From assembly GCA_963727445.1 (NCBI GenBank), contig CAVSGI010000013.1, positions 1-17,315 of the forward strand: a DNA stretch of 17,315 nucleotides. The letters are read 5' to 3'. Below are positions 1-12,093 of the stretch, piece after piece. The translations under genes and the position numbers were made by a program. This DNA comes from an uncultured delta proteobacterium (GTDB taxonomy: Bacteria > Myxococcota_A > Polyangia > Polyangiales > B10-G4). The notes beneath the pieces are model-generated. The model was not told the DNA's origin, made no database searches, and saw only the letters and a program-made list of their open reading frames with translations. Every line of letters begins with the position of its first letter. Position 1 is the stretch's first letter.

Positions 1-38
1 AACCGCACATCTCAATCCGTCCGTGGAGGTAACGAGGG

Positions 39-377
39 TTAGGTCATCGATATCCCATCCACTGAGTTCATGTGGAAGAGGGCGACGTAGCTTGGGTCGA
101 CCGTGTAGTACTGCAGGGCCAACCGCGCCGGGCGCTCTCGCGTCGCATCCGCTATGAAAGCACCCAGGGGGTCTCGGACATCGATGGATGCCGTCGGCCA
201 GGTTCCTGCGGTGAGCAAAGTGCCGGCCTCGGTAATGATGTAGTCCAACAGGTGTCCAAGGCCTCGCTGTGCGTAGGCTGCGTCTGGAAGTGCGTCCACA
301 TCGTCTACCGGCGCACCGTCGTACCTGCCAACTGTGGTGTAGTACTCTGCTGGAGGCGGCTCCGGATCGCTCACCAT
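39..377 (-). CDS. hypothetical small acidic protein (112 aa), last gene of the minus-strand cluster
   Basis: Six-frame ORF with a protein-like composition (Asp/Glu-rich, no Arg/Pro bias typical of wrong-frame GC-rich ORFs). Its ATG at 377 overlaps the stop of the upstream lipoprotein gene (371-373) by 7 nt, suggesting co-transcription. Lies in a lower-GC segment. No recognisable domain. Confidence 0.4.
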   Translation of the reverse strand: MVSDPEPPPAEYYTTVGRYDGAPVDDVDALPDAAYAQRGLGHLLDYIITEAGTLLTAGTWPTASIDVRDPLGAFIADATRERPARLALQYYTVDPSYVALFHMNSVDGISMT

Positions 378-1552
378 TGCCGCGTAACGGTCAAATGTGG
401 TGAATCCACCTCCGGCAAGCTCAAAGGCGGAGCGAGCTGGTCGAGGGAGCGATCGAACGCTTGGATCTCCTGGCGTAGATAGTCTCGTGCCTCCCTGAAA
501 TCATCGACAGCGAGACCAAAACGATCCGCGAACTGGCTAGCTGTGTCCGACGACCACTCGGTTTCGTTCCACAGTTCAGTGAGTCGCTTCCTCACACTGT
601 CGAAGTTTGTATCGACGAGAATGGCCTCCGTGGATTGGAAGGTCTCCTCATTCGCGAGCGCGGATGGCTGGACGCCGGACTCTCGGTAGACATCGATGGC
701 CGCGCGCGCGCGAGAAGAGAGCGGTGGTGCAGTGCAGAGCGCCGTCGACTGAGAAGACGCACCGAGCAAGGCGTCGTACAGGCCATCCTCCCCCCCGACG
801 AGCAGATGGACCGCACTCGCGCGGGACTGAAGGGGCGCTGAGAATGCCATCGTCGCGGCGGTCCGCGACGTCGCGTGCTCCGAGAAGTAGGCGTCAGCGA
901 GGGCGAGTTCGTTGTTGGCCGCCGACGTACCAGCTTCCTTTGCGAGTTCAAATGCCTCGACGATGGCCATCGAAAGTGAACGACCAAGCGACTCATCGCT
1001 TGTGCCAGCTGGGTCGGTCAACTCTGCATCAGTACATGTCCCGGCACCACCCAGCCCGCCCGCCATGTGAAGCTCAGTCGTCGCGGTCTCCACGGCCATT
1101 CGTGCTTCGTCCATGGCCAAGCGTTGAAGCGCTGCATTGGTGGCGGTGCTTTGGGCTGGGACCTCCCATTGTATGGTCTCGAGCACCACAGGCTCGGAGA
1201 CAATCCCGGCCATCTCCATCAACAGTTGTGCGGTACAGATGTGGCGATAGGCAAGGCAATGTGCGGCTGTACAGGCCGATGTTCCCGGACAATAGGGATT
1301 GAGGGGGTCGGCCAGGTAGGTTTCGCCTAGACGGCATTCCTTGTCGACGTCACTGATTATGTCCGCGGGGTCAACGTTGCGAACCTCTCCTGTTGTGAGT
1401 TCGATGTAGCGTACGGCTTGTCGCCGACGAAGCTGCTCGAAGCCAGGCGCTTTGGATTCTCGCAGAGAGAGATCGTTCGTCGGTCCGCATGAGAGGAGCG
1501 CGCAACCACTGGTGAGCGCAACGAACGCTAGTACTCTCTTTCGCATGGTCAT
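371..1552 (-). CDS. hypothetical secreted lipoprotein (Ala/Ser/Thr-rich, about 393 aa)
   Basis: ORF 371-1576. The internal start MTMRKRVLAFVALTSGCALLSC (ATG at 1552-1550) gives a signal peptide plus lipobox and overlaps the upstream gene stop (1551-1549) as ATGA. GC is lower (about 58%) than the rest of the window. No known domain recognised. Confidence 0.55.
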   Translation of the reverse strand: MTMRKRVLAFVALTSGCALLSCGPTNDLSLRESKAPGFEQLRRRQAVRYIELTTGEVRNVDPADIISDVDKECRLGETYLADPLNPYCPGTSACTAAHCLAYRHICTAQLLMEMAGIVSEPVVLETIQWEVPAQSTATNAALQRLAMDEARMAVETATTELHMAGGLGGAGTCTDAELTDPAGTSDESLGRSLSMAIVEAFELAKEAGTSAANNELALADAYFSEHATSRTAATMAFSAPLQSRASAVHLLVGGEDGLYDALLGASSQSTALCTAPPLSSRARAAIDVYRESGVQPSALANEETFQSTEAILVDTNFDSVRKRLTELWNETEWSSDTASQFADRFGLAVDDFREARDYLRQEIQAFDRSLDQLAPPLSLPEVDSPHLTVTRQW

Positions 1553-2763
1553 CGGACTTCTCCTGAACGCGCACACCGCACTGTGAAGAACTGCTCTAGG
1601 TGGGGATCGACCTGTCGCCGGCTAACGTGAAAGTAGGCTTCGATGGCCCCTGAACGGGGCGACCCGCGCACCATGAACTCGCCAAACGTGGTGGGCCCGG
1701 TCGGATCCATCAGCGAAGCGGGATCGGAGTAATAGGACGCGCCATATACGTCCGACACGCGGTCCAAACCGCCTCCGACCATCAGGTCGACGCCGTAATA
1801 GCTTCTGACCCCCGGGAGTCCGTCAATGGCGAAGGGAATCTCCTCGACCGAAGGCGTGTAGCCGCAGGGGAACGCTGGCAGTGCCGTGCAGTCAAAGGCT
1901 GTGCCCTCCCAGGGATAGGGTTGGGCTCGGGGCGCGGGGCCTCGAGCAGCCTTCTCCCACTCTGCCTCGGTGGGAAGTCGACGCCCATCCCATTCGCAGA
2001 AGGCAATCGTCTGGGGTCGACTCAATCCCTGGACCGGATAGTTGCCACGAGTTGGATCGGCGAGAGACGTCGCGCCGGGTGAGTACGCGGGCAAGGAACA
2101 AACGCCGGAATCGACACACTGCTGATACCTGGCATTCGACACGGGAAACCTGTCGATGTAGTAGGCGGACAAGATAACTTCTGCGACCGGCTGCGCATCA
2201 TCGAACATCTCGTCGCCGCGCACGAACGGGCCGCTCGGAATGCAGAGCTCTTCTGCTTCGGCAGGGCTGGTGCGACGCGATGTCCCGCAAGGATCGACGC
2301 ACATCTCCACGCCCCAGGAGCAATCCGCCTGACACTCACGATGGCTCTCCTCATTTGGTCCGCACCCAGAGGGATTTGTTTCCATATCCCCGGGCCGACA
2401 CTCACCGTCCGGAGCAACCTCTTCCCAAGCGCCCCACTCACAGGACGATGAGCACGTCCGAACTTGCTCCCCGCAGAGCTCACTCGTTTCTGATTCGGTC
2501 GCGCCCGCTTCGCACTCTCCCTCATTCATGCAGCCGCCCGGCATCTGCCATCGACCATCGTCCCCGCAGAGCTGCTCCGCCTCTCCACACATCCCACAGA
2601 GCACACGCTGGATGGTCCCGGGAGCACAGGGGGGTAGCGCGTCAGGCGTGCTCACATCTGCCGCCGTGGTCGAGTCGGCGGCATCCGACATGCTCGAGTC
2701 CGGCAACGCGTGCGAACCGTCACCACAAGCAGTCAGCGCCGCGAGGAAGACGAGCGCACTCAT
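1549..2763 (-). CDS. lipoprotein with an N-terminal Cys-rich region and a C-terminal FGE-sulfatase (SUMF1 / formylglycine-generating-enzyme family) domain, probably non-catalytic
   Basis: MSALVFLAALTACGDGS is a signal peptide with a lipobox (start 2763, ATGA overlap with the upstream stop at 2760-2762). A Cys-rich segment (several CxxC/CGxC) follows. The C-terminal ~250 aa carry FGE-sulfatase hallmarks: RLPTEAEWEKAARG and a terminal MVRGSPRS...FTVRCA block (cf. RVxRGGSW...GFRC). The expected CxxxxC catalytic pair next to the RGGS block is not present. Confidence 0.8.
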   Translation of the reverse strand: MSALVFLAALTACGDGSHALPDSSMSDAADSTTAADVSTPDALPPCAPGTIQRVLCGMCGEAEQLCGDDGRWQMPGGCMNEGECEAGATESETSELCGEQVRTCSSSCEWGAWEEVAPDGECRPGDMETNPSGCGPNEESHRECQADCSWGVEMCVDPCGTSRRTSPAEAEELCIPSGPFVRGDEMFDDAQPVAEVILSAYYIDRFPVSNARYQQCVDSGVCSLPAYSPGATSLADPTRGNYPVQGLSRPQTIAFCEWDGRRLPTEAEWEKAARGPAPRAQPYPWEGTAFDCTALPAFPCGYTPSVEEIPFAIDGLPGVRSYYGVDLMVGGGLDRVSDVYGASYYSDPASLMDPTGPTTFGEFMVRGSPRSGAIEAYFHVSRRQVDPHLEQFFTVRCARSGEVR

Positions 2764-4067
2764 CGCTTCCTCCACCAAAGCAGCAGGAACAGCGCGAGCG
2801 TCGGCAACAGCGACAGCCCCGCTCGACCGCTCGCCGAGCATCCGGATGAAGCCGGCGGTCGACAGACCAGCTCGGCATCGACGTCACCGCATACGAGCCC
2901 TACGGGGCAGTCGGTATCATCAGCACATCCTCGCGTGCAGGTAGCTCGACCATTGCCATCGTCGAGGCAGAGATCCGACACACACTCATCTGCGGTCTCA
3001 CACGCCTCGCCGAAGACACCGCCATCGGGCATGCACACATCCCCGGCACAATGAGTCCGCGCTGGGCAATCTGAGTCACTGGCGCAATCGGCCGCGCAGT
3101 AGCCGCCTTCGGTGCAGAGCCCAGATGCACAACCATCGGCAGAGTCACATGGATCGCCGAATCCAGCACCGACGCGGGTGCAGTGGCCGAACGCACATGA
3201 GGACCCTCCGGAACAGTCGGCATCTGTCATGCACTCGGGAGAACCGAGCTGGCGCACGCAGGATCCTTCCTCGCACACCTCATCCGCCGCACAGATGCGG
3301 CCACCGCAACCGTCGACGCATCCATCGGCAGAACACGCCATCCCCGACGGACAACCCTCGACAGCGCATGCACTGGCCGGGTAGAGGAAGCATGCTCCCG
3401 CGATATCATCCGACGACAGCACGCGAGCAGTCGGGCCACGGTAAAGCGGGTACATCGTCGTTTCAGCAAACCCTTCGTCGGTCGAGCACAGAGGTGCGCC
3501 GTCTGCACCGTCCGGCTCGCAGGGATGCATCAGCCCCAGGAGGTGACCCAGCTCGTGGGTCAGAACCGCTGTGAGATCGCGTGGGTCATCGGGTCCCGCC
3601 CCACCATCCTCTCGCCATTCGTAGTCTGCGGCGTTCAGATAGACGTCCGCTTCGACGATGCGCCACTGCCCATCCGAATCCTGCTCATACAGGACGTCGG
3701 TTGTCGCCGCGCCATCGGCAGCGAATCCATGGGAGGACCAATTGGCAAAGATCCACTGAACGGTGTTGTATCCGTCGTTCGGCTCGACCTCGCGGGAGGA
3801 GATGCCCCCATAGCGGATGACGGCCGTCGAGCAGGAAACCTGCCCCCAAGTTTCGCGGGCCTGACCGAGCGCTCGCTCAACGTCCACCGTGGAGACGCCC
3901 GGAACGCTGGCTGGAAAATGGCGTAGCTCCGGGGGGTCCGACCACCCAACGGCCTGATCGTCCGGGATCTCAGCCAGATCGGCGGCCGTCCGATACGCAG
4001 CAGCCGAATTCGGTGTCGCAAGACCGACGACAACGAGGAAAGCGGCTATCCAGGGCAGCCTGCTCAT
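2760..4067 (-). CDS. secreted matrixin-like (metzincin, M10-like) zinc metalloprotease with a Cys-rich C-terminal region and a MYXO-CTERM-type sorting tail
   Basis: N-terminal signal peptide MSRLPWIAAFLVVVGLATPNSAAA. Zinc-binding motif HELGHLLGLMH (HExxHxxGxxH) followed by a Met-turn TMYP. Then about 170 aa with many CxxGxC cysteine pairs. The C-terminus GCSASGRAGLSLLPTLALFLLLWWRKR* is a Cys/Gly motif plus a hydrophobic helix plus basic residues, which is the MYXO-CTERM pattern. The ATG at 4067 overlaps the upstream stop as ATGA. Confidence 0.85.
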   Translation of the reverse strand: MSRLPWIAAFLVVVGLATPNSAAAYRTAADLAEIPDDQAVGWSDPPELRHFPASVPGVSTVDVERALGQARETWGQVSCSTAVIRYGGISSREVEPNDGYNTVQWIFANWSSHGFAADGAATTDVLYEQDSDGQWRIVEADVYLNAADYEWREDGGAGPDDPRDLTAVLTHELGHLLGLMHPCEPDGADGAPLCSTDEGFAETTMYPLYRGPTARVLSSDDIAGACFLYPASACAVEGCPSGMACSADGCVDGCGGRICAADEVCEEGSCVRQLGSPECMTDADCSGGSSCAFGHCTRVGAGFGDPCDSADGCASGLCTEGGYCAADCASDSDCPARTHCAGDVCMPDGGVFGEACETADECVSDLCLDDGNGRATCTRGCADDTDCPVGLVCGDVDAELVCRPPASSGCSASGRAGLSLLPTLALFLLLWWRKR

Positions 4068-4609
4068 CGCGCAGCGTCCAGAAGTTGCGTCACACGGGAC
4101 AGAGTCGATCGAGGCCTGTGATGAAGCGCGTCCGCAGGGGGAAGGGCCTGGAGCACAGGACCCGCGTCGCTCTCGACCATGTGCCAGACCTCACCGCCTG
4201 CACTCGTCGAGACGAACCCACCCCCATCAAGCCGGGTCAGGAACACAACGACGTTGGAGCCAACGGAGAATCGCTGGCCGTGGCTTAGAACGCGGAGCTG
4301 ATCCCCATAGCGACCGCCGGGGACCCAGAAATGCACGATGTCGCCCATCTCATGGTCTGTGGATATGGGGTGAGTGACACGGAGTTCGACGCGTGTGTGG
4401 ATTCCCGGGGTGTTGTTGGGGCCTGTTGCCTGAGCAACCGTTTCAGCAACTACCCCCGCGATGACGACGTCGGCATTTTCAACGAGGACCGCGAGCTCGT
4501 CCCGACGGTCTCTGAGGGAAACTCGACTCGTGCGAGATGCATCGTTGCACCCGATGGCGACGAGCAAAAGCAGCCCGACCGCGAGGAGGTCGCGAAGTCG
4601 ACAGTCCAT
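4064..4609 (-). CDS. hypothetical small lipoprotein (181 aa), translationally coupled to the metalloprotease gene
   Basis: MDCRLRDLLAVGLLLLVAIGCNDAS is a signal peptide with a lipobox cysteine. Its stop at 4064-4066 overlaps the ATG of the protease gene (4067-4065). No known domain recognised. Confidence 0.6.
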   Translation of the reverse strand: MDCRLRDLLAVGLLLLVAIGCNDASRTSRVSLRDRRDELAVLVENADVVIAGVVAETVAQATGPNNTPGIHTRVELRVTHPISTDHEMGDIVHFWVPGGRYGDQLRVLSHGQRFSVGSNVVVFLTRLDGGGFVSTSAGGEVWHMVESDAGPVLQALPPADALHHRPRSTLSRVTQLLDAAR

Positions 4610-4676
4610 GGACCGTCGACCATCGCACCGCTTCGGAAAACCTCTCCTATCAGATCATGTAGGTAGTCACGTGTGG

Positions 4677-4706
4677 GCGTATCACGTTCCGCACGTGCCA
4701 CCGCTC
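4677..4706. promoter_or_regulatory. pair of CACGTG hexamers (plus a CACGTT) in the promoter region of the 181-aa lipoprotein / metalloprotease sub-operon
   Basis: In the only sizeable gap inside the minus-strand cluster (4610-4707), the sequence reads gtCACGTGtgggcgtatCACGTTccgCACGTGcc. CACGTG is also the core of the 22-bp palindrome at 8740-8761. Confidence 0.3.
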
Positions 4707-4707
4707 G

Positions 4708-6936
4708 CTACGGCACTGGGTCGTTCATGCCCACGACGAAGAACTGATCGTCACTGGTCGTCTCGGGCAGGTTGATGTGCCCGACGAGCACGCCGGTGAC
4801 GTAGTAGCCGGCCAGGCCGATGTCGCCGGTGGCGTTGATGTCGATGCCGTGGACGAAACCCGCGTCGCGGCGTAGCTCGCCACTCTGCAACAGCGCCACG
4901 TAGTCGAGCGCACCGGCGGAGGTGTAACGGGCGACGAAGCCGTGATCGCGGCCCGGGGTGGTTGCCCCGTCGTAGGCGTAGTCGCCATTGCTGCCGCCGA
5001 CGACGATGGGCGCGCCACTCGAGGTGAGGACCAGGTCCCGGGGCTCGACGGTGCCGGTGCCCATCGTGGCGGGAATGGACCAGTTCAGGGTGCCATCATA
5101 CGCGTAGCTCTCGAGGAGCGCGTCGCTGGTTGCGACGTAGATGTTGGCGCTGGTCACCTCGACGCCGGCTGGGACGTCCACACCGGAGGTGCTGAGCTGG
5201 ATTTGTTGCTGGAAGGTGCCGCCGGCTGAGTAGCGGACGACGAAGCCGTCGCGTCCGTCGGGCGTCAGCGCTCCTCCACCGAAATCGGTCATCCCGTCGA
5301 AGTATCCGGCAACGAAGACCTGGCCGGCCGCATTTCGCGCGACATGCAGCGGCGTACCCGGCAGTCGCCAGCTCGCCACGTGAGCGCCGCTCGAATCGTA
5401 GTGTGCGACGAAGCCAAAGTCCGTTCCGCCAGTGGCGCGGTTGCCGCCACCGAAGTCGAAGTCGCCGGCGAGTATGCCAACAGCGAAGACGCCCCCGGCC
5501 CCGTCGGGGACGACCCCACGAACGTCGTCGGTGGAGCTCGCGGTGTGTAGGCGCTTGGCCCAAAGGGGCGTGCCCGTCGAATTGAGCTTGGCCACGATGC
5601 CGTCGACGCCCGTGGTGCTCGTCACCGTGATCCCGGCCGACCCACCGAAGCGGATGGACTGGCTGAACTTGCCACCCCAGAACATGTTGCCGCTCGAATC
5701 CAGCTCGAAGGCGTACTGCTGGATGAGCCCCGTGGACGTCGTCCGATCGATGTCGGTTCGAGTGACGTAGGTCCCACCATCATCCCATTCGATGATGTGA
5801 TGGTGGCTACTGCCCGTGAAGGTCTCGCTTCCGGCGCCGCTGGGATCGCTGTACGAGCCGCGCATGGCCACCGCAACGAGGACCGATCCGGCCGAGGTGA
5901 CGCCGACCCGCTCGTACTCGGCCTGCGGATGGGTGTCCGCGGTGCGATACCTTCGCGCCCAGGTCACCTCCGGCCGGCAGATGCTGGCGCCGCAGGTGCC
6001 GCCGACGATGCATCGGAATCCACAGGACCCGCAGTTTGCGTCGTCGGAGCTGGTGTCGGTGCAGGCGCCTGAACAGTCCGCGGTACCCGCGGGGCAGGCG
6101 CAGGTACTCGAAGCACACGTCGCGCCCGTCGAGCACGCCATGTCGCAACCGCCGCAGTGCGCTGGATCGGTCGATGTGTCTGCACAGGTGCTGCCGCAGA
6201 GTGTGGTCCCCGCACCGCATTCGCACGTTCCCGCGACGCACGTCTCGGTGGTGAAGCACCCCACCCGACATCCGCCGCAATGGGAGCTGTTGGAGGTCGT
6301 GTCCACACAACCAGCGGTTCCACAGTCCGTCAGGCCCGTGGGACACGTGCAGGCGCCGGCAACGCATTCATACATCCCCGCGCAGGTCGCGGAAGGCCCA
6401 TCCACCGTGCCATCGCAATCGTTGTCGACGCCGTCACAGGCCTCCGAGGCGCCCGGATGGACGCCAGGATCCGAATCGTCACAGTCCGTGCCGCCGCAGA
6501 CGACCGCCGGGTCCCCGTCGGCGTCACCATCGAGCGGAACGTATTGGCAGAGCCCGCGCGAGGCGTCGCAGCGTACGAACACCCGACACGGATCGGTGGT
6601 TGGGCACTCGGCGTCGGACGTACAGGGGGTTCCCGCGACGCATCCGGCCGACAAGTCGCAGACCTCGCTCGGCGCACAGAGGGTGTCATCGAGCGCGTGG
6701 ACGCACGCCCCGCTCTCGCAGCTGTCGTTGGTGCAATCGTTTCCATCGTCGCAGTCGAGGGTGAGGCAGGGATCGGTCGTACCACTGTCCATTGCGTCTG
6801 GGCCGGAGTCGGCAGAGGCCCCGGAATCCGCATCGAGCGACGCGTCCGCGTCGAGCGCTGCATCGACTGCGGCGTCGTCGCCGCCACATCCAGCGATGGC
6901 GAACAAGCACAGAGCCGCGACTCGTGTCACCGACAT
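4708..6936 (-). CDS. large Cys-rich lipoprotein: Myxococcus-type Cys repeat, MopE-like putative metal-binding motif, HCGGC-type Cys repeats, and a C-terminal SBBP beta-propeller
   Basis: ORF 4708-6972. The likely start MSVTRVAALCLFAIAGCGG (ATG 6936) gives a lipoprotein signal. Motifs present: DCDDGNDCTNDSCESGAC (Myxococcus Cys-rich repeat); DGDADGDPAVVCGGTDCDDSDPGVHPGASEACDGVDNDCDGTVDG (PF11617-like MopE motif); five ~35-aa repeats with HCGGCxxxC / NCGSCGxxC. The C-terminal ~420 aa carry repeated DFGGG...GFV(A/V)(H/R)Y(D/S)SxG blocks typical of SBBP beta-propeller repeats. Confidence 0.8.
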   Translation of the reverse strand: MSVTRVAALCLFAIAGCGGDDAAVDAALDADASLDADSGASADSGPDAMDSGTTDPCLTLDCDDGNDCTNDSCESGACVHALDDTLCAPSEVCDLSAGCVAGTPCTSDAECPTTDPCRVFVRCDASRGLCQYVPLDGDADGDPAVVCGGTDCDDSDPGVHPGASEACDGVDNDCDGTVDGPSATCAGMYECVAGACTCPTGLTDCGTAGCVDTTSNSSHCGGCRVGCFTTETCVAGTCECGAGTTLCGSTCADTSTDPAHCGGCDMACSTGATCASSTCACPAGTADCSGACTDTSSDDANCGSCGFRCIVGGTCGASICRPEVTWARRYRTADTHPQAEYERVGVTSAGSVLVAVAMRGSYSDPSGAGSETFTGSSHHHIIEWDDGGTYVTRTDIDRTTSTGLIQQYAFELDSSGNMFWGGKFSQSIRFGGSAGITVTSTTGVDGIVAKLNSTGTPLWAKRLHTASSTDDVRGVVPDGAGGVFAVGILAGDFDFGGGNRATGGTDFGFVAHYDSSGAHVASWRLPGTPLHVARNAAGQVFVAGYFDGMTDFGGGALTPDGRDGFVVRYSAGGTFQQQIQLSTSGVDVPAGVEVTSANIYVATSDALLESYAYDGTLNWSIPATMGTGTVEPRDLVLTSSGAPIVVGGSNGDYAYDGATTPGRDHGFVARYTSAGALDYVALLQSGELRRDAGFVHGIDINATGDIGLAGYYVTGVLVGHINLPETTSDDQFFVVGMNDPVP

Positions 6937-7973
6937 CCGCTGCTCCCATAACAGATCTGCCCCGCTCGACACGGCAGGCCGGAGCTACCGCAGACGCACG
7001 TGCCTGCGCGACAGCAATCCGAGGTCCACGAGCAGGAGTTCCCACACATCCCGCAATCGTCGGCCGACGATGTGGTGTCGACGCAACTCCCCGAGCAGCA
7101 CGAGAGGCCCGACGCGCACACGTTTCCGCACGCGCCGCAGTTTGCGTCGTCCATCTGCAGGTTCACCTCACATCCATCGCCCCGGGCCCCATTGCAATCC
7201 TCGTAGCCCATCCGGCACGAGCCGAAGACGCAGGTCCCGGAAACGCAGGTGCGGAAGGTCCCGGAGATGAGACAGTCGACGTTGGCGTCCTCGTCAGTCG
7301 CTCCGTCGCAGTCGTTGTCCGCCCCATCGCAGATCTCCGTTGCGCCCGGATAGGTGTCCGCGTTCGTGTCGTCGCAATCCGTCGCCGGTCGGTCTCCCCC
7401 CGTGCACGTGGCATCCAGATCCACGAAGCCGTCGTCGTCACGGTCCTCCGCCGGATCGTTGCCTCCGCCCGAGCTGCAGTCGTCGTCGAGCCCGTTGCAG
7501 ATCTCGTCTGCACCCGCATAGACATCGGGATTCGAGTCATCGCAGTCCGCGCCACCGCAGGCAGCAGCGGGATCTCCGTCCCCGTCACCATCCATCGGGG
7601 GGTACTCGCAGAGACGGGTAGCTTCGTTGCAATGATCGAGGGTGCAGCTGTCTCCATCCGTACAGTCGGAGTCGGTCGCGCAGATGCGAGGCCCCGTGTC
7701 GACACGGCGTGTGTCCGGCGCGGCATCCGTGGACGAGGCATCGGCATCGCCAGCGGTCGCGTCGGTCACGCTGGAGTCCGGGACGCTCGCGTCCATGTCA
7801 CCACAGAGACAGGGCGAGAACGTGCCTTCCGACGTGCACTGCTGGGTTCCTGTGGTTCTGCCGGGACACGGACACTCGAGAGTCCGTCCTTCTACACAAG
7901 CCGCGCTCCCGTCGCCGCACGCAGCGGCCAGCGCGGGGATGACGAACACGAGAACGACTCGCGCTTCAGTCAT
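6927..7973 (-). CDS. Cys-rich lipoprotein with three MopE-like putative metal-binding motifs and C-terminal CGxCGNxC repeats
   Basis: MTEARVVLVFVIPALAAACGDGS is a lipoprotein signal. Three copies of the DGDGDGDP..CGG.DCDD..P...GA.EICDG.DNDCDG..DE pattern are present. The C-terminal repeats NCGACGNVCASGLSCCSGSC / DCGMCGNSCSWTSDCC are paralogous to repeats in the downstream 754-aa protein. The ATG at 7973 overlaps the LuxR gene stop (8-nt ATGACTGA overlap). Confidence 0.75.
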   Translation of the reverse strand: MTEARVVLVFVIPALAAACGDGSAACVEGRTLECPCPGRTTGTQQCTSEGTFSPCLCGDMDASVPDSSVTDATAGDADASSTDAAPDTRRVDTGPRICATDSDCTDGDSCTLDHCNEATRLCEYPPMDGDGDGDPAAACGGADCDDSNPDVYAGADEICNGLDDDCSSGGGNDPAEDRDDDGFVDLDATCTGGDRPATDCDDTNADTYPGATEICDGADNDCDGATDEDANVDCLISGTFRTCVSGTCVFGSCRMGYEDCNGARGDGCEVNLQMDDANCGACGNVCASGLSCCSGSCVDTTSSADDCGMCGNSCSWTSDCCRAGTCVCGSSGLPCRAGQICYGSSGCR

Positions 7974-8628
7974 GGATCTCCATGTTGTAGAACAGCCACG
8001 TCAGCTCCTCTCGCCGCTTCACGCCGACGCGCTCGCGCAGCTGACTGAAGTGGAAGTTCTTCGTGGAGAGCTTCACGCCGAAGACGTGCTCCATGTCCGC
8101 GTAGGGGATCTCGCGGTCGAGGAGATCGATGTACTCGAGCTCTGTCGGGGTCAGGCCGTACCGTTGCCCGAACAGCTCGACCCTGGTTCGCCGCCTGATC
8201 GGGTCCTTGGCGCCTAGCACCGAGGCGTATCGGACGGCACGCCAGGTCGCGTCGACTCCGGTCTCGTGGGAGATGCATCTCGCGCGCAGGCGCAGGGCTT
8301 GCCGCCGAGTCTCGCGATCATCCTCGTGAACCACGGCCGCGCTGATCAGGTGCCGATTTAGCCGCCGGAGCGCGGCGAGTGGCTCCAAGCACGATTCGGG
8401 CGAGCCATTTTGTCGAACCACGAGACCACGAACGTCTTCGGGCGACTCGTGGAGGATTCTGGTGGCCTCCGCCGCTTTTGCGCGACGCAATCGCAGACGG
8501 TTATCCGAAAGGTCGTCGCATTCTTCGCCGAACCCATCCCCCACCAGAAGGAGGAGATGGCGCGCGACGGCACGGTGGGTCCCAGATCCGCCCTCGGGCG
8601 GGTCCGCCTCATCAATAACTCCCGACAC
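7966..8628 (-). CDS. LuxR/GerE-family transcriptional regulator (C-terminal HTH; N-terminal ~150 aa of unknown type)
   Basis: C-terminal LTPTELEYIDLLDREIPYADMEHVFGVKLSTKNFHFSQLRERVGVKRREEL matches the LuxR-type HTH (LTxRExEVL..L..G.S...IA..L.IS..TVK.H...I..KLGV..R.EL). It is the first gene of the minus-strand cluster, preceded by a ~640-bp intergenic region rich in palindromes. Confidence 0.8.
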   Translation of the reverse strand: MSGVIDEADPPEGGSGTHRAVARHLLLLVGDGFGEECDDLSDNRLRLRRAKAAEATRILHESPEDVRGLVVRQNGSPESCLEPLAALRRLNRHLISAAVVHEDDRETRRQALRLRARCISHETGVDATWRAVRYASVLGAKDPIRRRTRVELFGQRYGLTPTELEYIDLLDREIPYADMEHVFGVKLSTKNFHFSQLRERVGVKRREELTWLFYNMEIHD

Positions 8629-8739
8629 TGCCCTTCCCCTTCACTCAGAGACCCGAGGGCCTCTCCCCTTCAAACCAAGCAATCGTGTCGAGCCATGGAG
8701 AGTGCCAGAAATCGAACGGAGTGGATCACGGGCCACGAA

Positions 8740-8761
8740 GATTGGGCCACGTGGCCCAATC
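8740..8761. promoter_or_regulatory. 22-bp perfect palindrome GATTGGGCCACGTGGCCCAATC (candidate operator) about 110 bp upstream of the LuxR gene start
   Basis: The sequence equals its own reverse complement, centred on CACGTG. An extra GGGCCACG half-site copy lies 15 bp to the left (8729-8736). Located in the promoter region of the minus-strand operon. Confidence 0.5.
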
Positions 8762-8842
8762 TCACACGCGCTTCGGGAATTTGCTTGACGCCGCGTTTTC
8801 GCAGCGCGGAGTCACTCTCCCTCCGCAACGCGAAGCGTGCGT

Positions 8843-8861
8843 GTCACCCCGTGAGGGTGAC
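8843..8861. other. hairpin / inverted repeat GTCACCC-cgtga-GGGTGAC
   Basis: Perfect 7-bp stem with a 5-nt loop in the intergenic region. It shares the GTCAC/GTGAC core with the downstream 51-bp tandem repeats. Confidence 0.4.
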
Positions 8862-9078
8862 GCACCACCGCAGGAGATCGGCGACGCAGGAGATCCGAAC
8901 CAGGTTGGCGACCTCGCCTCCAGCGCGCGACGGATCCCGAAACGATCTCTGGGCGATGAGTCGCGCTCGCTGCGATGCCCATCCCGGCAAGCTGTACTTC
9001 GTCACGCGACGATGCAGGCGGCGGCACTTCGTGCTCGCGCCTGACCTGGCGGGCATCGTGGCACCTCCCCCAAGCCGT

Positions 9079-9230
9079 CCGGTCACATCGCCCGACGTCA
9101 CGCCCAACCCTGCCAGTTGTGACCGCTATCCGGTCACATCGCCGACGTCACGCCCAACCCTGCCAGTTGTGACCGCTATCCGGTCACATCGGCCGACGTC
9201 ACGCCCAACGCTCCGAGTTGTGACCGACTC
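9079..9230. repeat. three tandem direct repeats of about 51 bp, each containing an 8-bp inverted repeat CGGTCACA...(30 bp)...TGTGACCG
   Basis: Units at 9079-9129, 9130-9179 and 9180-9230. Units 1 and 2 are near-identical (1-nt indel); unit 3 has several substitutions. No unique spacers lie between units. They sit between the tRNA-Leu 3' end and the LuxR promoter region. Confidence 0.8.
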
Positions 9231-9288
9231 GACCCGATGAGGTCAGCCGCCCCAAAACCAAAGCGCCCCGGCTCATCGCCAGGGCGTC

Positions 9289-9374
<86 letters not shown>

Positions 9375-9625
9375 GTGGGGAGCGCTCAGATAGGCCGTGC
9401 TCGGGCTGCTGTCAATGTCTGCATGCGTTGGCGTGGGGAGTGCTGGGCTGCGGGGGGCGGGCTTGGCTCTCGGTGTGATTCCGCGGGGTTGGTCCGGGAG
9501 GGGGGGCCGAAAAAAATGCATAGTCCTGCAGGGGATGCGGACCGGGCCTCGTGGGAAAGGGGGAGTTCTCTTCTGATTTCGAGGGATTGAGTGCGGTATG
9601 CGCATTGCACCGACCGGCCCTCGAT

Positions 9626-10306
9626 ATGGTCCGTCCTGTAGAGAAGCGTGCGCTTGGCTTGTGGGGGGCTGCTCGCCCCCCTCACGGCCCCCCCGACCCC
9701 AAGCGGGCCGGCTTCACGCTCACCGAAATGATGATGGTGGTGACCATCATCGCCATCACGGCAGGGTTGGCGGCGCCCGCGATGTACAACGCCTTCGCCG
9801 AACGGCGCACCGCGACCGCACCCATCGACTTCATCCGGATGGTGCGGCGGGGTCGCTCCGAGGCCATGGCCTACGGTCGCGCCCACCTCATCCGCTTCTC
9901 CTCCAGCTCGCCCGGGAGCTTCATGCTCTACCGCGGGGTGAGCTCGAGCTGCGTCGGCAACGACTGGACGGCGATCATCCCGACGAGCTCCACCAACCCC
10001 TGCGGCGAGCCCGGCAGCGACAACCAGATGTGCATCGAAGAGATGCGCCTCGGCGGCTCGTACTACACCACCGGCTCCCTCTCGGTGCACGCGACCGAGT
10101 CGAGCGCGGCCAGCGACGTCGACCTCTGCTTCGAGCCCGACGGCCGGACCCTCTTTCGCAAGTCCACGAGCGCCACGCTCACCTCGGACAACACCATCAA
10201 CGGCGGCCTGATCTTCAACTTCCGCCGTTACGACAGCGGCGCGCCCATCGGCGTCGTCCGCCAGGTCGTCGTCCCCCTGGGCGGCGACGCGAGGTTGATG
10301 CGATGA
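9626..10306 (+). CDS. type IV pilus minor pilin / pseudopilin, FimU/FimT/GspH-like (prepilin-type N-terminal methylation domain)
   Basis: The prepilin motif KRAG|FTLTEMMMVVTIIAITAGLAAP has Gly at -1, Phe at +1, Glu at +5 and a hydrophobic helix. It is the first gene of the minor-pilin operon. The exact start is ambiguous: ATG 9551 and ATG 9626 give unusually long leaders, and TTG 9659 is also possible. The stop overlaps the next gene start as ATGA. Confidence 0.65.
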   Translation: MVRPVEKRALGLWGAARPPHGPPDPKRAGFTLTEMMMVVTIIAITAGLAAPAMYNAFAERRTATAPIDFIRMVRRGRSEAMAYGRAHLIRFSSSSPGSFMLYRGVSSSCVGNDWTAIIPTSSTNPCGEPGSDNQMCIEEMRLGGSYYTTGSLSVHATESSAASDVDLCFEPDGRTLFRKSTSATLTSDNTINGGLIFNFRRYDSGAPIGVVRQVVVPLGGDARLMR

Positions 10307-10881
10307 CGCGCCGCCGCCGCACGCAGGAACAGGGCTACACCCTCATCGAGGTCATGATGGCGGTCGCGATCATGACCGTCGGCTCGGTGGGCATCTTCTC
10401 GCTCCACACGGCCACCACCAACGGCAACCGCCTCGCGCGCGAGACCTCGACGGCGGTGGACCTCTCTCGCCTCTACCTCGAGCGCGCCCGGCGCGACGCC
10501 CTGATGTGGAACGCGTCGGGCAACGTCACCTCCACCGAGCTCCTCACGAACGTCGCCGTCTCGGGCCTGGGCGACTGGTTCATCCCCAGCCCCACCATCG
10601 GCTCCTACGCCTTCGACTACCAGGGCAGAGACACCAGCACCACCTCCGAGATGTACTACTGCGCCAACATCCGCGTCAGCTGGATCATCGGGCAGGACGC
10701 GGCGCGCGTGGACAGCCGCGTGTGGTGGCGACGCTCGGGCGCTTCGAACCCGCCGCCCTCGTCCTGGGACTGCGACACCGACCCGGCGACCATCACCTCC
10801 GAGCTGGCAGACACCAACCCCGCTCCCCGCATTCACGCGGTCTATGCGTCCACCGTCGTTCGTTGGACGAGGTTGAACTGA
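10303..10881 (+). CDS. PilV-like type IV pilus minor pilin (192 aa)
   Basis: MTRRRRTQEQG|YTLIEVMMAVAIMTVGSVGIFSL is a prepilin leader plus an N-terminal helix with Glu at +5, typical of PilV. The ATG at 10303 overlaps the upstream stop. Its own stop (10879-10881) overlaps the next ATG (10881). Confidence 0.75.
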   Translation: MTRRRRTQEQGYTLIEVMMAVAIMTVGSVGIFSLHTATTNGNRLARETSTAVDLSRLYLERARRDALMWNASGNVTSTELLTNVAVSGLGDWFIPSPTIGSYAFDYQGRDTSTTSEMYYCANIRVSWIIGQDAARVDSRVWWRRSGASNPPPSSWDCDTDPATITSELADTNPAPRIHAVYASTVVRWTRLN

Positions 10882-12093
10882 TGACCCGACGCGAGCACAT
10901 CCGCCGCCGGCGGCACGCAAAGAACGCCGGCTTCACCCTGGTCGAGCTGATGGTGGCGCTCGCCGCCGGCGCCATGGCCATCTCCAGCATCTACTTCGTG
11001 AGCGCCTCCTCCAGCCGGCACTTCCACGAGCAGCAGCGCATCGCGCAGAACCAGATGACCCTGCGCACCGCGATGGCCCAGCTCCGCCGCGACTTCTGCG
11101 CGCGCCGGCTACCTGGGCACGCCCAACACGGCCAAGGAAGACGCCTGCGGAACGACGCCGTCCACCTTCAACTTCGGCGCGATCCTGATCGACGACAGCG
11201 CCACCACCTGCGCGCCCAGCGTCACCTGTGGCACGTCGGTCCTGGACGAGCAGACCATCAACGGCGTCCAGGCAGACACGGTCCAGCTCACCGGCAACTT
11301 CGTGACCGGCGACGCCTACAAGGCCAGCGGCACTCAGAGCACCACCCAGCTCATGTTCTCCAAGACCTGGCAGATGTTTCGCCGGTCCTTCGGCGCCGAC
11401 GACCTCGGCGAGTACGACACGGCGCTCTTCGAGTCGGCCTTCGCGCCGGGCCGCTACGTGCAGATCAGCCACGACGCCCGGGGCTACAAGTTCTACGCCG
11501 AGATCGAGTCGGTCGACGGTGGCTCGTCCACCCCGCCCACCGTCACCATCAGCCGCCCCCTCCCCGGCTGCTTCGGCCGCTGTGAAGGATTCGGCTGCAC
11601 CGTCTCCCCCATCAGCCGCATCGAATACGCCGTGCTCGACATGGAGACCGCCGGCAGCCTCAGCGCCCTCGACGTCGGCTCGAGCTCCCCCCTCGCGGGC
11701 GTGCGCGGACCGGTCCTCGTTCGCCGCGAGCTCGACTTCGCCTCCTCCCCGACGCCGGTCGCCAACAGCGAACGCGTGGTCGCCGAGTACGTCGCGAACT
11801 TCGACGTCGACGTCATCAGCAACACCAACGTCTCCTCGGGCACCCCGACCCTGGCGCTGCAAGACGACGCGAGCGCCGCGAGCCTGACCTCGTCCAACCC
11901 CCATCGCGTGCGGAGCGCCGTCATCAGCCTCTCCATCCGCACCCCCGCCGAGGATCCGCGCTTCCCCTTCGTCTCCGGCTCCGGCCTCACCCGCTACGAG
12001 CTCGACCCCGACATCGAAGGCGCCGCCCGCGTCCGCACCAGCACCATCGAGGTGCTCCTCTCCAACGTCGCCGCGAGGGACATCCGCCCATGA
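10881..12093 (+). CDS. PilW-like large minor pilin, reading frame interrupted (frame 0 to frame +1 switch at about 11098-11105)
   Basis: The N-terminus MTRREHIRRRRHAKNAG|FTLVELMVALAAGAMAISSIYFV is a prepilin-type motif in frame 0, readable to ...AMAQLRRDFC near 11097. After that, frame 0 becomes Arg-rich nonsense. Frame 1 is open from 11059 and reads a protein-like ARAGYLGTPNTAKEDACGTT... through to the stop at 12093, joining ORF 11302-12093. The switch maps to a GCGCGCGC tract. A repaired product would be about 403 aa. Confidence 0.65.

Follow-up and report, generated by a model that had tools for sequence, protein, structure and literature searches.

A perfect 24-bp palindrome as a possible operator beside an atypical NarL/LuxR-type regulator gene on a tRNA-linked island of a myxobacterium

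What might an exact inverted repeat be doing in the non-coding DNA ahead of a regulator gene, and does it do anything there at all? The question arises from a stretch of 17,315 nt, here called the window and always meant at its full length, in which the 22-bp sequence GATTGGGCCACGTGGCCCAATC at 8740-8761 is an exact reverse-complement palindrome. A preliminary description had drawn attention to this site. Indeed, the symmetry reaches further than was reported, as one more base pairs on each side of it to give a perfect 24-mer. The dyad has a spacer of zero and no loop, and when folded as single-stranded DNA it forms a 10-bp stem with a 4-nt loop. It is positioned in a non-coding stretch of 660 nt between the regulator gene and a tRNA-Leu gene, across which six ORFs were found to be without a meaningful Pfam match. 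Close by, the inner 8 nt of its left arm are repeated, so that the site comprises two elements:

8739..8762, no strand: perfect 24-bp palindrome AGATTGGGCCACGTGGCCCAATCT, CACGTG-centred, with its centre between 8750 and 8751
8730..8737, plus strand: third half-site GGGCCACG, same sequence and orientation as the inner left arm, 14 nt upstream of it

The number of GGGCCACG copies expected by chance within 30 nt on each side of the palindrome is 0.006. A duplicated half-site had been described before, and it does exist, but its coordinates lie one base to the right of the 8729-8736 first given. No more half-sites were found in the window's intergenic DNA (8629-9288 and the gap at 4.6 kb). Similarly, the 17-kb window holds no second copy of the palindrome, and about 52 kb of relatives' loci hold neither copies of it nor half-sites.

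Is such a dyad more than an accident? When the whole window was shuffled with its dinucleotides preserved, a longest perfect arm of at least 12 was obtained in 2 of 300 shuffles, and the roughly 52 kb of related Myxococcota loci held a single further perfect palindrome whose arms reach 9 or more. For a single window a 24-bp palindrome is unusual, although the screening of many windows would make it less than astronomically rare. The same figure bears on the view that the palindrome is without function, having arisen by chance or by recent mutation, for example when template switching corrected a quasi-palindrome in island DNA undergoing decay. Two shuffles in 300 are not negligible under the screening of many windows, the surrounding 660 nt look non-coding and are possibly decaying island DNA, and there is no sign of conservation. 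However, a perfect 24-mer, a third half-site with an expectation as low as that given above, and an intergenic location beside a regulator gene together make pure chance unlikely, and we judge a palindrome without function to be decidedly unlikely. As separate observations, the window also contains a 24-bp near-perfect palindrome with one mismatched pair, GTCGACAGTCCATGGACCGTCGAC at 4597-4620, which overlaps the ATG of a 181-aa ORF (4064-4609), and the related locus L048 contains a 22-bp perfect palindrome, GAGTCGAAGAGCTCTTCGACTC at 3149-3170, within a called 293-aa hypothetical gene.

If the palindrome is functional, the neighbouring gene is an obvious place to look. This gene is the first of the island's co-directional gene cluster, and is preceded by a putative ribosome-binding sequence:

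7966..8628, minus strand: 220-aa ORF, atypical NarL/FixJ/LuxR-type regulator by remote homology, profile and a low-confidence model
8631..8640, minus strand: SD-like purine-rich stretch AGGGGAAGGG, directly upstream of GTG 8628, read from the sequence

The 220-aa ORF had no match in Pfam or NCBIfam, proved to be an orphan when 5.8 billion proteins were searched through a word index, and alone gave no significant match to the PDB. A phmmer search against 1.8 billion representatives returned four matches. The first of these (P0002) is an 89-aa protein with 59% identity to aa 132-218 of the regulator, and the others (P0003-P0005, E 2e-5 to 1e-4) are GerE/LuxR-type HTH-like proteins, one of them with a precomputed Pfam GerE match. 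In a pairwise comparison the GerE protein P0005 matched aa 104-211 of the regulator with an E of 4e-9, and a four-sequence profile matched the structures of GerE, NarL, VraR, DosR, TraR and ComA. Whereas a single-sequence AlphaFold model was uninformative (pLDDT 40), a model built on a shallow alignment (mean pLDDT 59.7) has a beta-alpha, receiver-like N-terminal half followed by four C-terminal helices, and its best PDB fold matches are the full-length NarL/FixJ-type response regulators StyR, FixJ, VraR, EvgA and RcsB. From these remote similarities in sequence and predicted fold, we accept that the protein belongs broadly to the LuxR family, as had been proposed at the outset, and that it is probably an atypical NarL/FixJ-type member with a degenerate receiver, in which no obvious phospho-acceptor Asp is seen by eye, and with a GerE-type HTH at about aa 158-215.

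The distance between this gene and the palindrome depends on where translation starts. For the longest ORF model, 110 nt separate the palindrome edge at 8739 from the GTG at 8628, in agreement with the preliminary description. The SD-like AGGGGAAGGG in front of this GTG supports the long gene model. However, the codon bias of the ORF is weaker upstream of about 8260, which makes the start codon uncertain and the 110-nt distance plausible only. Therefore, the palindrome may stand anywhere from 110 to about 520 bp from the regulator gene.

Downstream of the regulator gene are the genes that it might be presumed to control:

4708..7973, minus strand: two overlapping co-directional genes, the presumed regulated genes
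6927-7973, minus strand: 348-aa lipoprotein-like protein with MopE/Stig1 repeats, overlapping the regulator gene (7966-7973)
4708-6972, minus strand: 754-aa Cys-rich protein with MopE/Stig1 repeats, overlapping the 348-aa gene (6927-6972)

These overlaps suggest that the three genes form one transcription unit. The cluster also encodes a metalloprotease-like protein and a protein with an FGE-sulfatase domain. Homologues of the window's MopE proteins are partial and cover the repeat domains only, and two loci that contain such homologues (L054 and L055) have no related regulator or palindrome. A promoter scan of 8500-9700 found no sigma-70-like promoter, a consensus that myxobacterial promoters fit poorly. 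A candidate sigma-54 promoter at 8693-8707 was discarded; TGGCAC can be read there, but its spacing to the GC element is wrong.

Given this arrangement, we tentatively propose, with confidence somewhat short of even, that the palindrome is an operator for a dimeric helix-turn-helix regulator, most simply the adjacent NarL/LuxR-type protein, and that the third half-site is auxiliary to it. In such a mechanism a homodimer would read the two 12-bp half-sites, which form a perfect dyad, while the directly repeated half-site 14 bp upstream would let one more subunit make an auxiliary contact. The binder would most simply be the product of the adjacent gene, and the bound regulator would control its own transcription together with that of the downstream island genes for secreted Cys-rich proteins. 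The anatomy of the sequence, its non-coding placement, its setting on the island and, through remote homology, the family of the neighbouring protein are observed; the binding of a protein at the palindrome, the adjacent product as its binder and the direction of regulation are inferred.

How well does the site suit such a protein? Dimers of the GerE-HTH/NarL-FixJ class (TraR, LuxR, DosR, NarL, StyR and ComA) bind inverted repeats of 16-20 bp, and the architecture of the palindrome, a dyad-symmetric non-coding site of this length or more, therefore fits. The preliminary description had likewise seen here the architecture of an operator for a dimeric factor, and in so far as this refers to a non-coding dyad upstream of a gene that remote homology places in the GerE-HTH class, it stands. 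The region upstream of the one close homologue of the regulator is without the motif. This homologue, P0002, is encoded on a 577-bp contig (L047), where its gene is preceded by another gene, and the 263 bp available upstream of it contain no CACGTG, palindrome or similar motif. Within the window, moreover, the site is not repeated upstream of other genes of a would-be regulon, the data for both comparisons being very thin. The known operators of the LuxR/NarL/FixJ family, for example the tra box, the lux box, the DosR box, the NarL 7-2-7 site and the ComA site, share with the palindrome the dyad symmetry of an 18-24-bp site and a place beside a regulator gene, which here is of the GerE-HTH class by remote homology. 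The palindrome nonetheless matches none of these consensus sites and differs from them in its CACGTG centre, its perfect symmetry and its lack of a spacer. Similarly, the adjacent regulator departs from standard family members in being highly divergent, in lacking a Pfam match and in its degenerate receiver. The outer TTGGG...CCCAA of the palindrome resembles the DosR-type TTSGGG...CCCSAA and the ComA-type TTGCGG-N4-CCGCAA, and the tripartite site of ComA likewise combines a palindrome with one extra half-site; we take these likenesses as a lead only. Natural operators are mostly imperfect, and a perfect palindrome with zero spacer is no less typical of a structural hairpin. The occurrence of an identical 18-bp core in hairpin-type repeats elsewhere, described below, was also counted against the operator reading.

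The CACGTG centre itself had suggested a further possibility, namely control by a bHLH-like or other CACGTG-binding factor, with the hexamer recurring twice in an internal gap of the cluster. Two copies are indeed present in this 98-nt gap, at 4668-4673 and 4692-4697 rather than within 4677-4706, but they belong to a single structure. An imperfect stem-loop at 4660-4700 follows directly on the 754-aa gene's stop codon, in the one gap inside the gene cluster. It carries CACGTG in each of its arms (GGTAGTCACGTG ... CACGTGCCACC) and could act as an intercistronic terminator or stabiliser. Since the two copies are complementary arms of one hairpin, a CACGTG-binding factor gains no independent support from them. 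Enrichment of CACGTG as a sign of such a factor was rejected for this reason and on the count for the whole window, which is 7 observed against 8.8 expected. The palindrome has its core hexamer or octamer in common with the eukaryotic E-box/G-box (CACGTG / CCACGTGG), which is bound by bHLH and bZIP factors, and literature matches for GGCCACGTGGCC were MYC reporter constructs only. However, the host is bacterial and the window encodes no bHLH or bZIP protein, and the likeness comes about by coincidence, the core being short and self-complementary. We know of no realistic bHLH-like candidate in bacteria, and this part of the earlier proposal is set aside.

The stem-loop in the internal gap also bears on the idea that the palindrome acts as RNA, as a stable stem-loop, carried either by the 5′ leader of the regulator operon or by the 3′ end of some unannotated transcript from upstream. 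It could there serve as a terminator without a U-tract, as a processing site or as a stabiliser, and the extra half-site could provide an alternative pairing. Minus-strand RNA of 8690-8830 folds better than shuffled sequences (z = -2.3), a modest value that is driven by the palindrome itself, and in the minimum-energy fold of this segment the left arm pairs with the extra half-site. In the cluster's other intergenic gap a stop codon is followed at once by a hairpin with CACGTG in its arms, which indicates that such hairpins occur in this cluster. However, no upstream gene or Rfam family was found in 8763-9264, neither strand has a U-tract, and the terminator scan reports the tRNA-Leu(CAG) terminator at 9264-9286 only. 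With no U-tract after it, the palindrome is not a canonical intrinsic terminator, and overall we find a role as an RNA hairpin improbable.

A different set of alternatives follows from where the palindrome sits in the genome, as the 660-nt stretch ends at a tRNA gene:

9289-9374, minus strand: tRNA-Leu(CAG), the 3′ end of which is the boundary of a lineage-specific island

GC3 is 0.65-0.81 to the left of this tRNA and 0.88-0.95 to the right of it, and the left and right halves of the window have a TETRA correlation of 0.55. To the right is a minor-pilin/PilY1 operon. Two related loci, L048 and L049, retain the synteny of tRNA-Leu and pilin operon, conserved non-coding blocks included, and similarity to them stops exactly at the tRNA-Leu 3′ end; in L049 the same tRNA is directly adjoined by the C-terminal part of a tyrosine integrase. 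The break in composition and the end of synteny at this point place the palindrome on a lineage-specific island at a tRNA hot spot. The left half of the window (1-9288) is compositionally foreign and specific to this lineage, and it contains orphan secreted Cys-rich proteins, the metalloprotease and the FGE-sulfatase-domain protein. The palindrome is about 530 bp from the island junction. No integrase is encoded in the window, and no integrase pseudogene or similarity to plasmids or phages was found in 8629-9288.

Several further features of this boundary region were noted. Three tandem 50-bp repeats, two of them identical, are located at 9078-9226, directly downstream of the tRNA-Leu terminator, in the interval that separates the junction from the palindrome. 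All three carry the inverted pair GGTCACA...TGTGACC, and their 9-mer TCCGGTCAC also occurs twice in L049 between the integrase C-terminus and the same tRNA; these repeats may be arm-type recombinase sites or iterons. On the other side of the tRNA, the DNA that separates tRNA-Leu from the minor-pilin operon includes a non-coding block, CCGAAAAAAATGCATAG...TGCGGACC (window 9480-9560, L048 5760-5820, L049 450-500), that is conserved in three genomes whose proteins share just 57-58% identity and is probably the promoter or a regulatory region of the pilin operon. The third minor-pilin (PilW-like) gene, at about 10881-12093, is split by a frameshift near 11096. Searches by tblastn with the L048 and L049 homologues place the frame switch at about 11096, with 83% and 59% identity on its two sides, and either the gene is a true pseudogene or the long-read assembly has an indel error there.

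Does the palindrome occur elsewhere? Its 18-bp core, TTGGGCCACGTGGCCCAA, was found at 23 places in 185,579 GTDB representative genomes and at 23 places in JGI metagenome contigs; among the representative genomes, the MAG 5N171 is the only member of the Myxococcota with a match. The 20-mer with the window's own flanks had no match in the JGI metagenome contigs, and the sole match to the window's 22-mer in the representative genomes falls inside an unrelated YidB-like gene of an alphaproteobacterium. Many of the 18-mer matches are coding coincidences of the same sort (in DUF1016, cytochrome c, 3HCDH, HEAT and YidB genes); for example, in the Opitutus DUF1016 gene family the 18-mer encodes "IWATWPKL". 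An 18-bp palindrome has nine free positions (1 in 262,144), and chance identity is therefore expected in about 600 Gb of sequence, so matches elsewhere are not evidence of homology. A neighbouring protein common to the 18-mer loci was also sought, and the idea was dropped: no match resulted from a BLASTP comparison between window ORFs up to 3 kb from the palindrome and the ORFs surrounding the 18-mer in other loci, the contexts are heterogeneous and many matches are coding chance matches.

The genuine palindromic elements among the 18-mer matches fall into three groups, the repeats of 5N171, a Desulfomonilaceae-type element and another 26-bp version. In the Myxococcales MAG 5N171 the core is part of a 60-80-nt intergenic repeat of the form CTACTTGGTCCACG-GCAC-CTACTTGG[G/T]CCACGTGG[C/A]CCAAGTTGCC..., with 7 full palindromes in 24 kb, all of them intergenic. 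Copies of the repeat are located as follows:

L007: 4660-4740 and 7100-7170
L008: 2600-2700, 3800-3870 and 4840-4950
L021: 3550-3610

This repeat also has a directly repeated extra half-site, always of the T-type, and in its arm variants (TTGGGCC.../TTGGTCC...) both arms always change together. A 2.4-kb segment of lower GC3 on L007 is enclosed by two copies that have additional repeated flanks, and a truncated, IS91-like zinc-finger ORF on L008 directly adjoins another copy.

These copies give substance to the view that the palindrome in the window is a REP/MITE-like hairpin repeat, perhaps solitary or decayed, with no specific link to the regulator. The shared 18-bp core, the extra half-site as in the window, the symmetric arm changes, which point to a constraint from hairpin formation or templated correction, and the bracketed 2.4-kb segment all speak for it, as do Opitutaceae loci with paired, CCACGTGG-centred intergenic palindromes. 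These pairs are found at L002 1256-1310, L006 1772-1828, L005 and L019. In one example ATTGTCGCCACGTGGCGACAAT is followed 13 nt later by TTTGGGCCACGTGGCCCAAA in a module of about 55 nt that is conserved in several genomes, and one pair is positioned between a GNAT gene and a sugar-binding-protein gene. The window copy, in contrast, is on its own and lacks the flanking consensus of 5N171, its flanks being unrelated; it has ATTGGG where the 5N171 copies have CTTGGG, and its half-site spacing is 14 rather than 18. Tetranucleotide z-score correlations are 0.49-0.63 between the window and 5N171 as compared to 0.62-0.74 within 5N171, and lend no support to a derivation of the window from this MAG. 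Absence of the 20-mer from metagenome contigs, the coding nature of the only genome match that shares flanks, and the coincidence with some repeat family that is expected for nine free positions in about 600 Gb weigh in the same direction. With REP, REPIN and MITE-type repeats in general, the palindrome has in common that these are GC-rich, extragenic and hairpin-forming. REP and REPIN elements are imperfect palindromes with a GTAG-like head and family-wide flanks, whereas the palindrome is a perfect, loop-less hairpin that is present once in the window, with no GTAG head and no shared flanks, and the window encodes no RAYT (Y1 transposase). The preliminary description had named a widespread, REP-like repeat as the finding that would speak against an operator. 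Judged indirectly, through the collections searched, the 20-mer and 22-mer are not multi-copy, but the 18-bp core is dispersed in 5N171. We consider a REP/MITE-like origin unlikely, though worth keeping in mind.

The second group of elements leads to mobile DNA of another kind. On Desulfomonilaceae-type contigs (about 51-57% GC) a 26-bp perfect palindrome, GTACTTGGGCCACGTGGCCCAAGTAC, is invariant while its flanks diverge:

L010, a Desulfomonilaceae MAG and the locus with a taxonomic label: 2357-2382
Metagenome loci: L025, L026, L032, L033, L037, L038, L040, L041, L045 and L046

It is always located between an ORF of about 300 aa and a C5 cytosine methylase gene, followed by genes for a TPR protein and an HTH_17 protein, and probably functions as a regulatory or structural site within a mobile methylase module. 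The ORF of about 300 aa gave a weak ParB-HTH hint (E 9e-4, below the cutoff), which PHROGs and the PDB did not confirm. The third group, the other 26-bp version, is present on two contigs and adjoins a DDE transposase on one of them.

Such neighbours, and the position of the palindrome on the island, raise the question of whether it is a cis-acting DNA site of an integrated element, that is, a recombination site, an oriT-type site or a ParB-like partition site. Its distance of about 530 bp from the tRNA-Leu 3′ end that bounds the island, the integrase C-terminus at the same tRNA in the relative L049, the three iteron-like 50-bp repeats between tRNA and palindrome, and the related 22-26-bp palindromes that adjoin the C5 methylase module and the DDE transposase in other phyla all favour this. 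In addition, its inner CCACGTGG is the core of the Myxococcus xanthus parS consensus, TGTTCCACGTGGAACG (PMC3899335). The likeness to parS consists of a CACGTG-centred palindrome, an identical inner CCACGTGG and an outer TG/CA. However, identity as parS was rejected, as the match to the M. xanthus consensus is just 12/16 and the mismatches fall on the conserved GTT/AAC positions, where the palindrome has GGG/CCC. By comparison, the T-variant of the 5N171 repeat is identical to M. xanthus parS at 14/16 positions. The comparison with the M. xanthus consensus also speaks against a match to the 16-bp parS consensus tGTTNCACGTGNAACa. Instead of clustered sites near parAB or an origin there is a single site, with no parAB nearby, on a tRNA-linked island rather than in a known ori-proximal region. 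The window encodes no integrase, relaxase, ParA/ParB or replication gene, the non-coding stretch shows no similarity to plasmids or phages, there were no viral matches, and the window has no protein family in common with any other locus that carries the core. A cis-acting site of an integrated element is in our estimation quite improbable.

A bolder proposal would unite these observations by placing the palindrome in a cross-phylum class of perfect, CCACGTGG-centred palindromes with the core TTGGGCCACGTGGCCCAA, as parS-derived or hairpin-recognition sites of mobile DNA. If so, the 5N171 repeats, the 26-bp palindrome of the Desulfomonilaceae and the copies next to a DDE transposase would be facets of one mobile-element system, and the copy in the window would mark the end of an integrative island. 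We regard this as highly improbable.

What, then, would the palindrome mean for its host? Perfect-palindrome operators beside HTH genes and hairpin repeats are both commonplace, and under any of the readings considered here the palindrome is a well-known kind of feature. Should it be an operator, as we tentatively favour, it would be the binding site for a very divergent NarL-type regulator that is probably independent of phosphorylation. This would be of local use and would leave the general picture unchanged: a regulator and its operator, easy to test as a pair, would be at hand for a gene cluster that is orphan and horizontally acquired, encodes a metalloprotease and secreted Cys-rich proteins, and belongs to a little-sampled, Polyangia-like lineage of myxobacteria.
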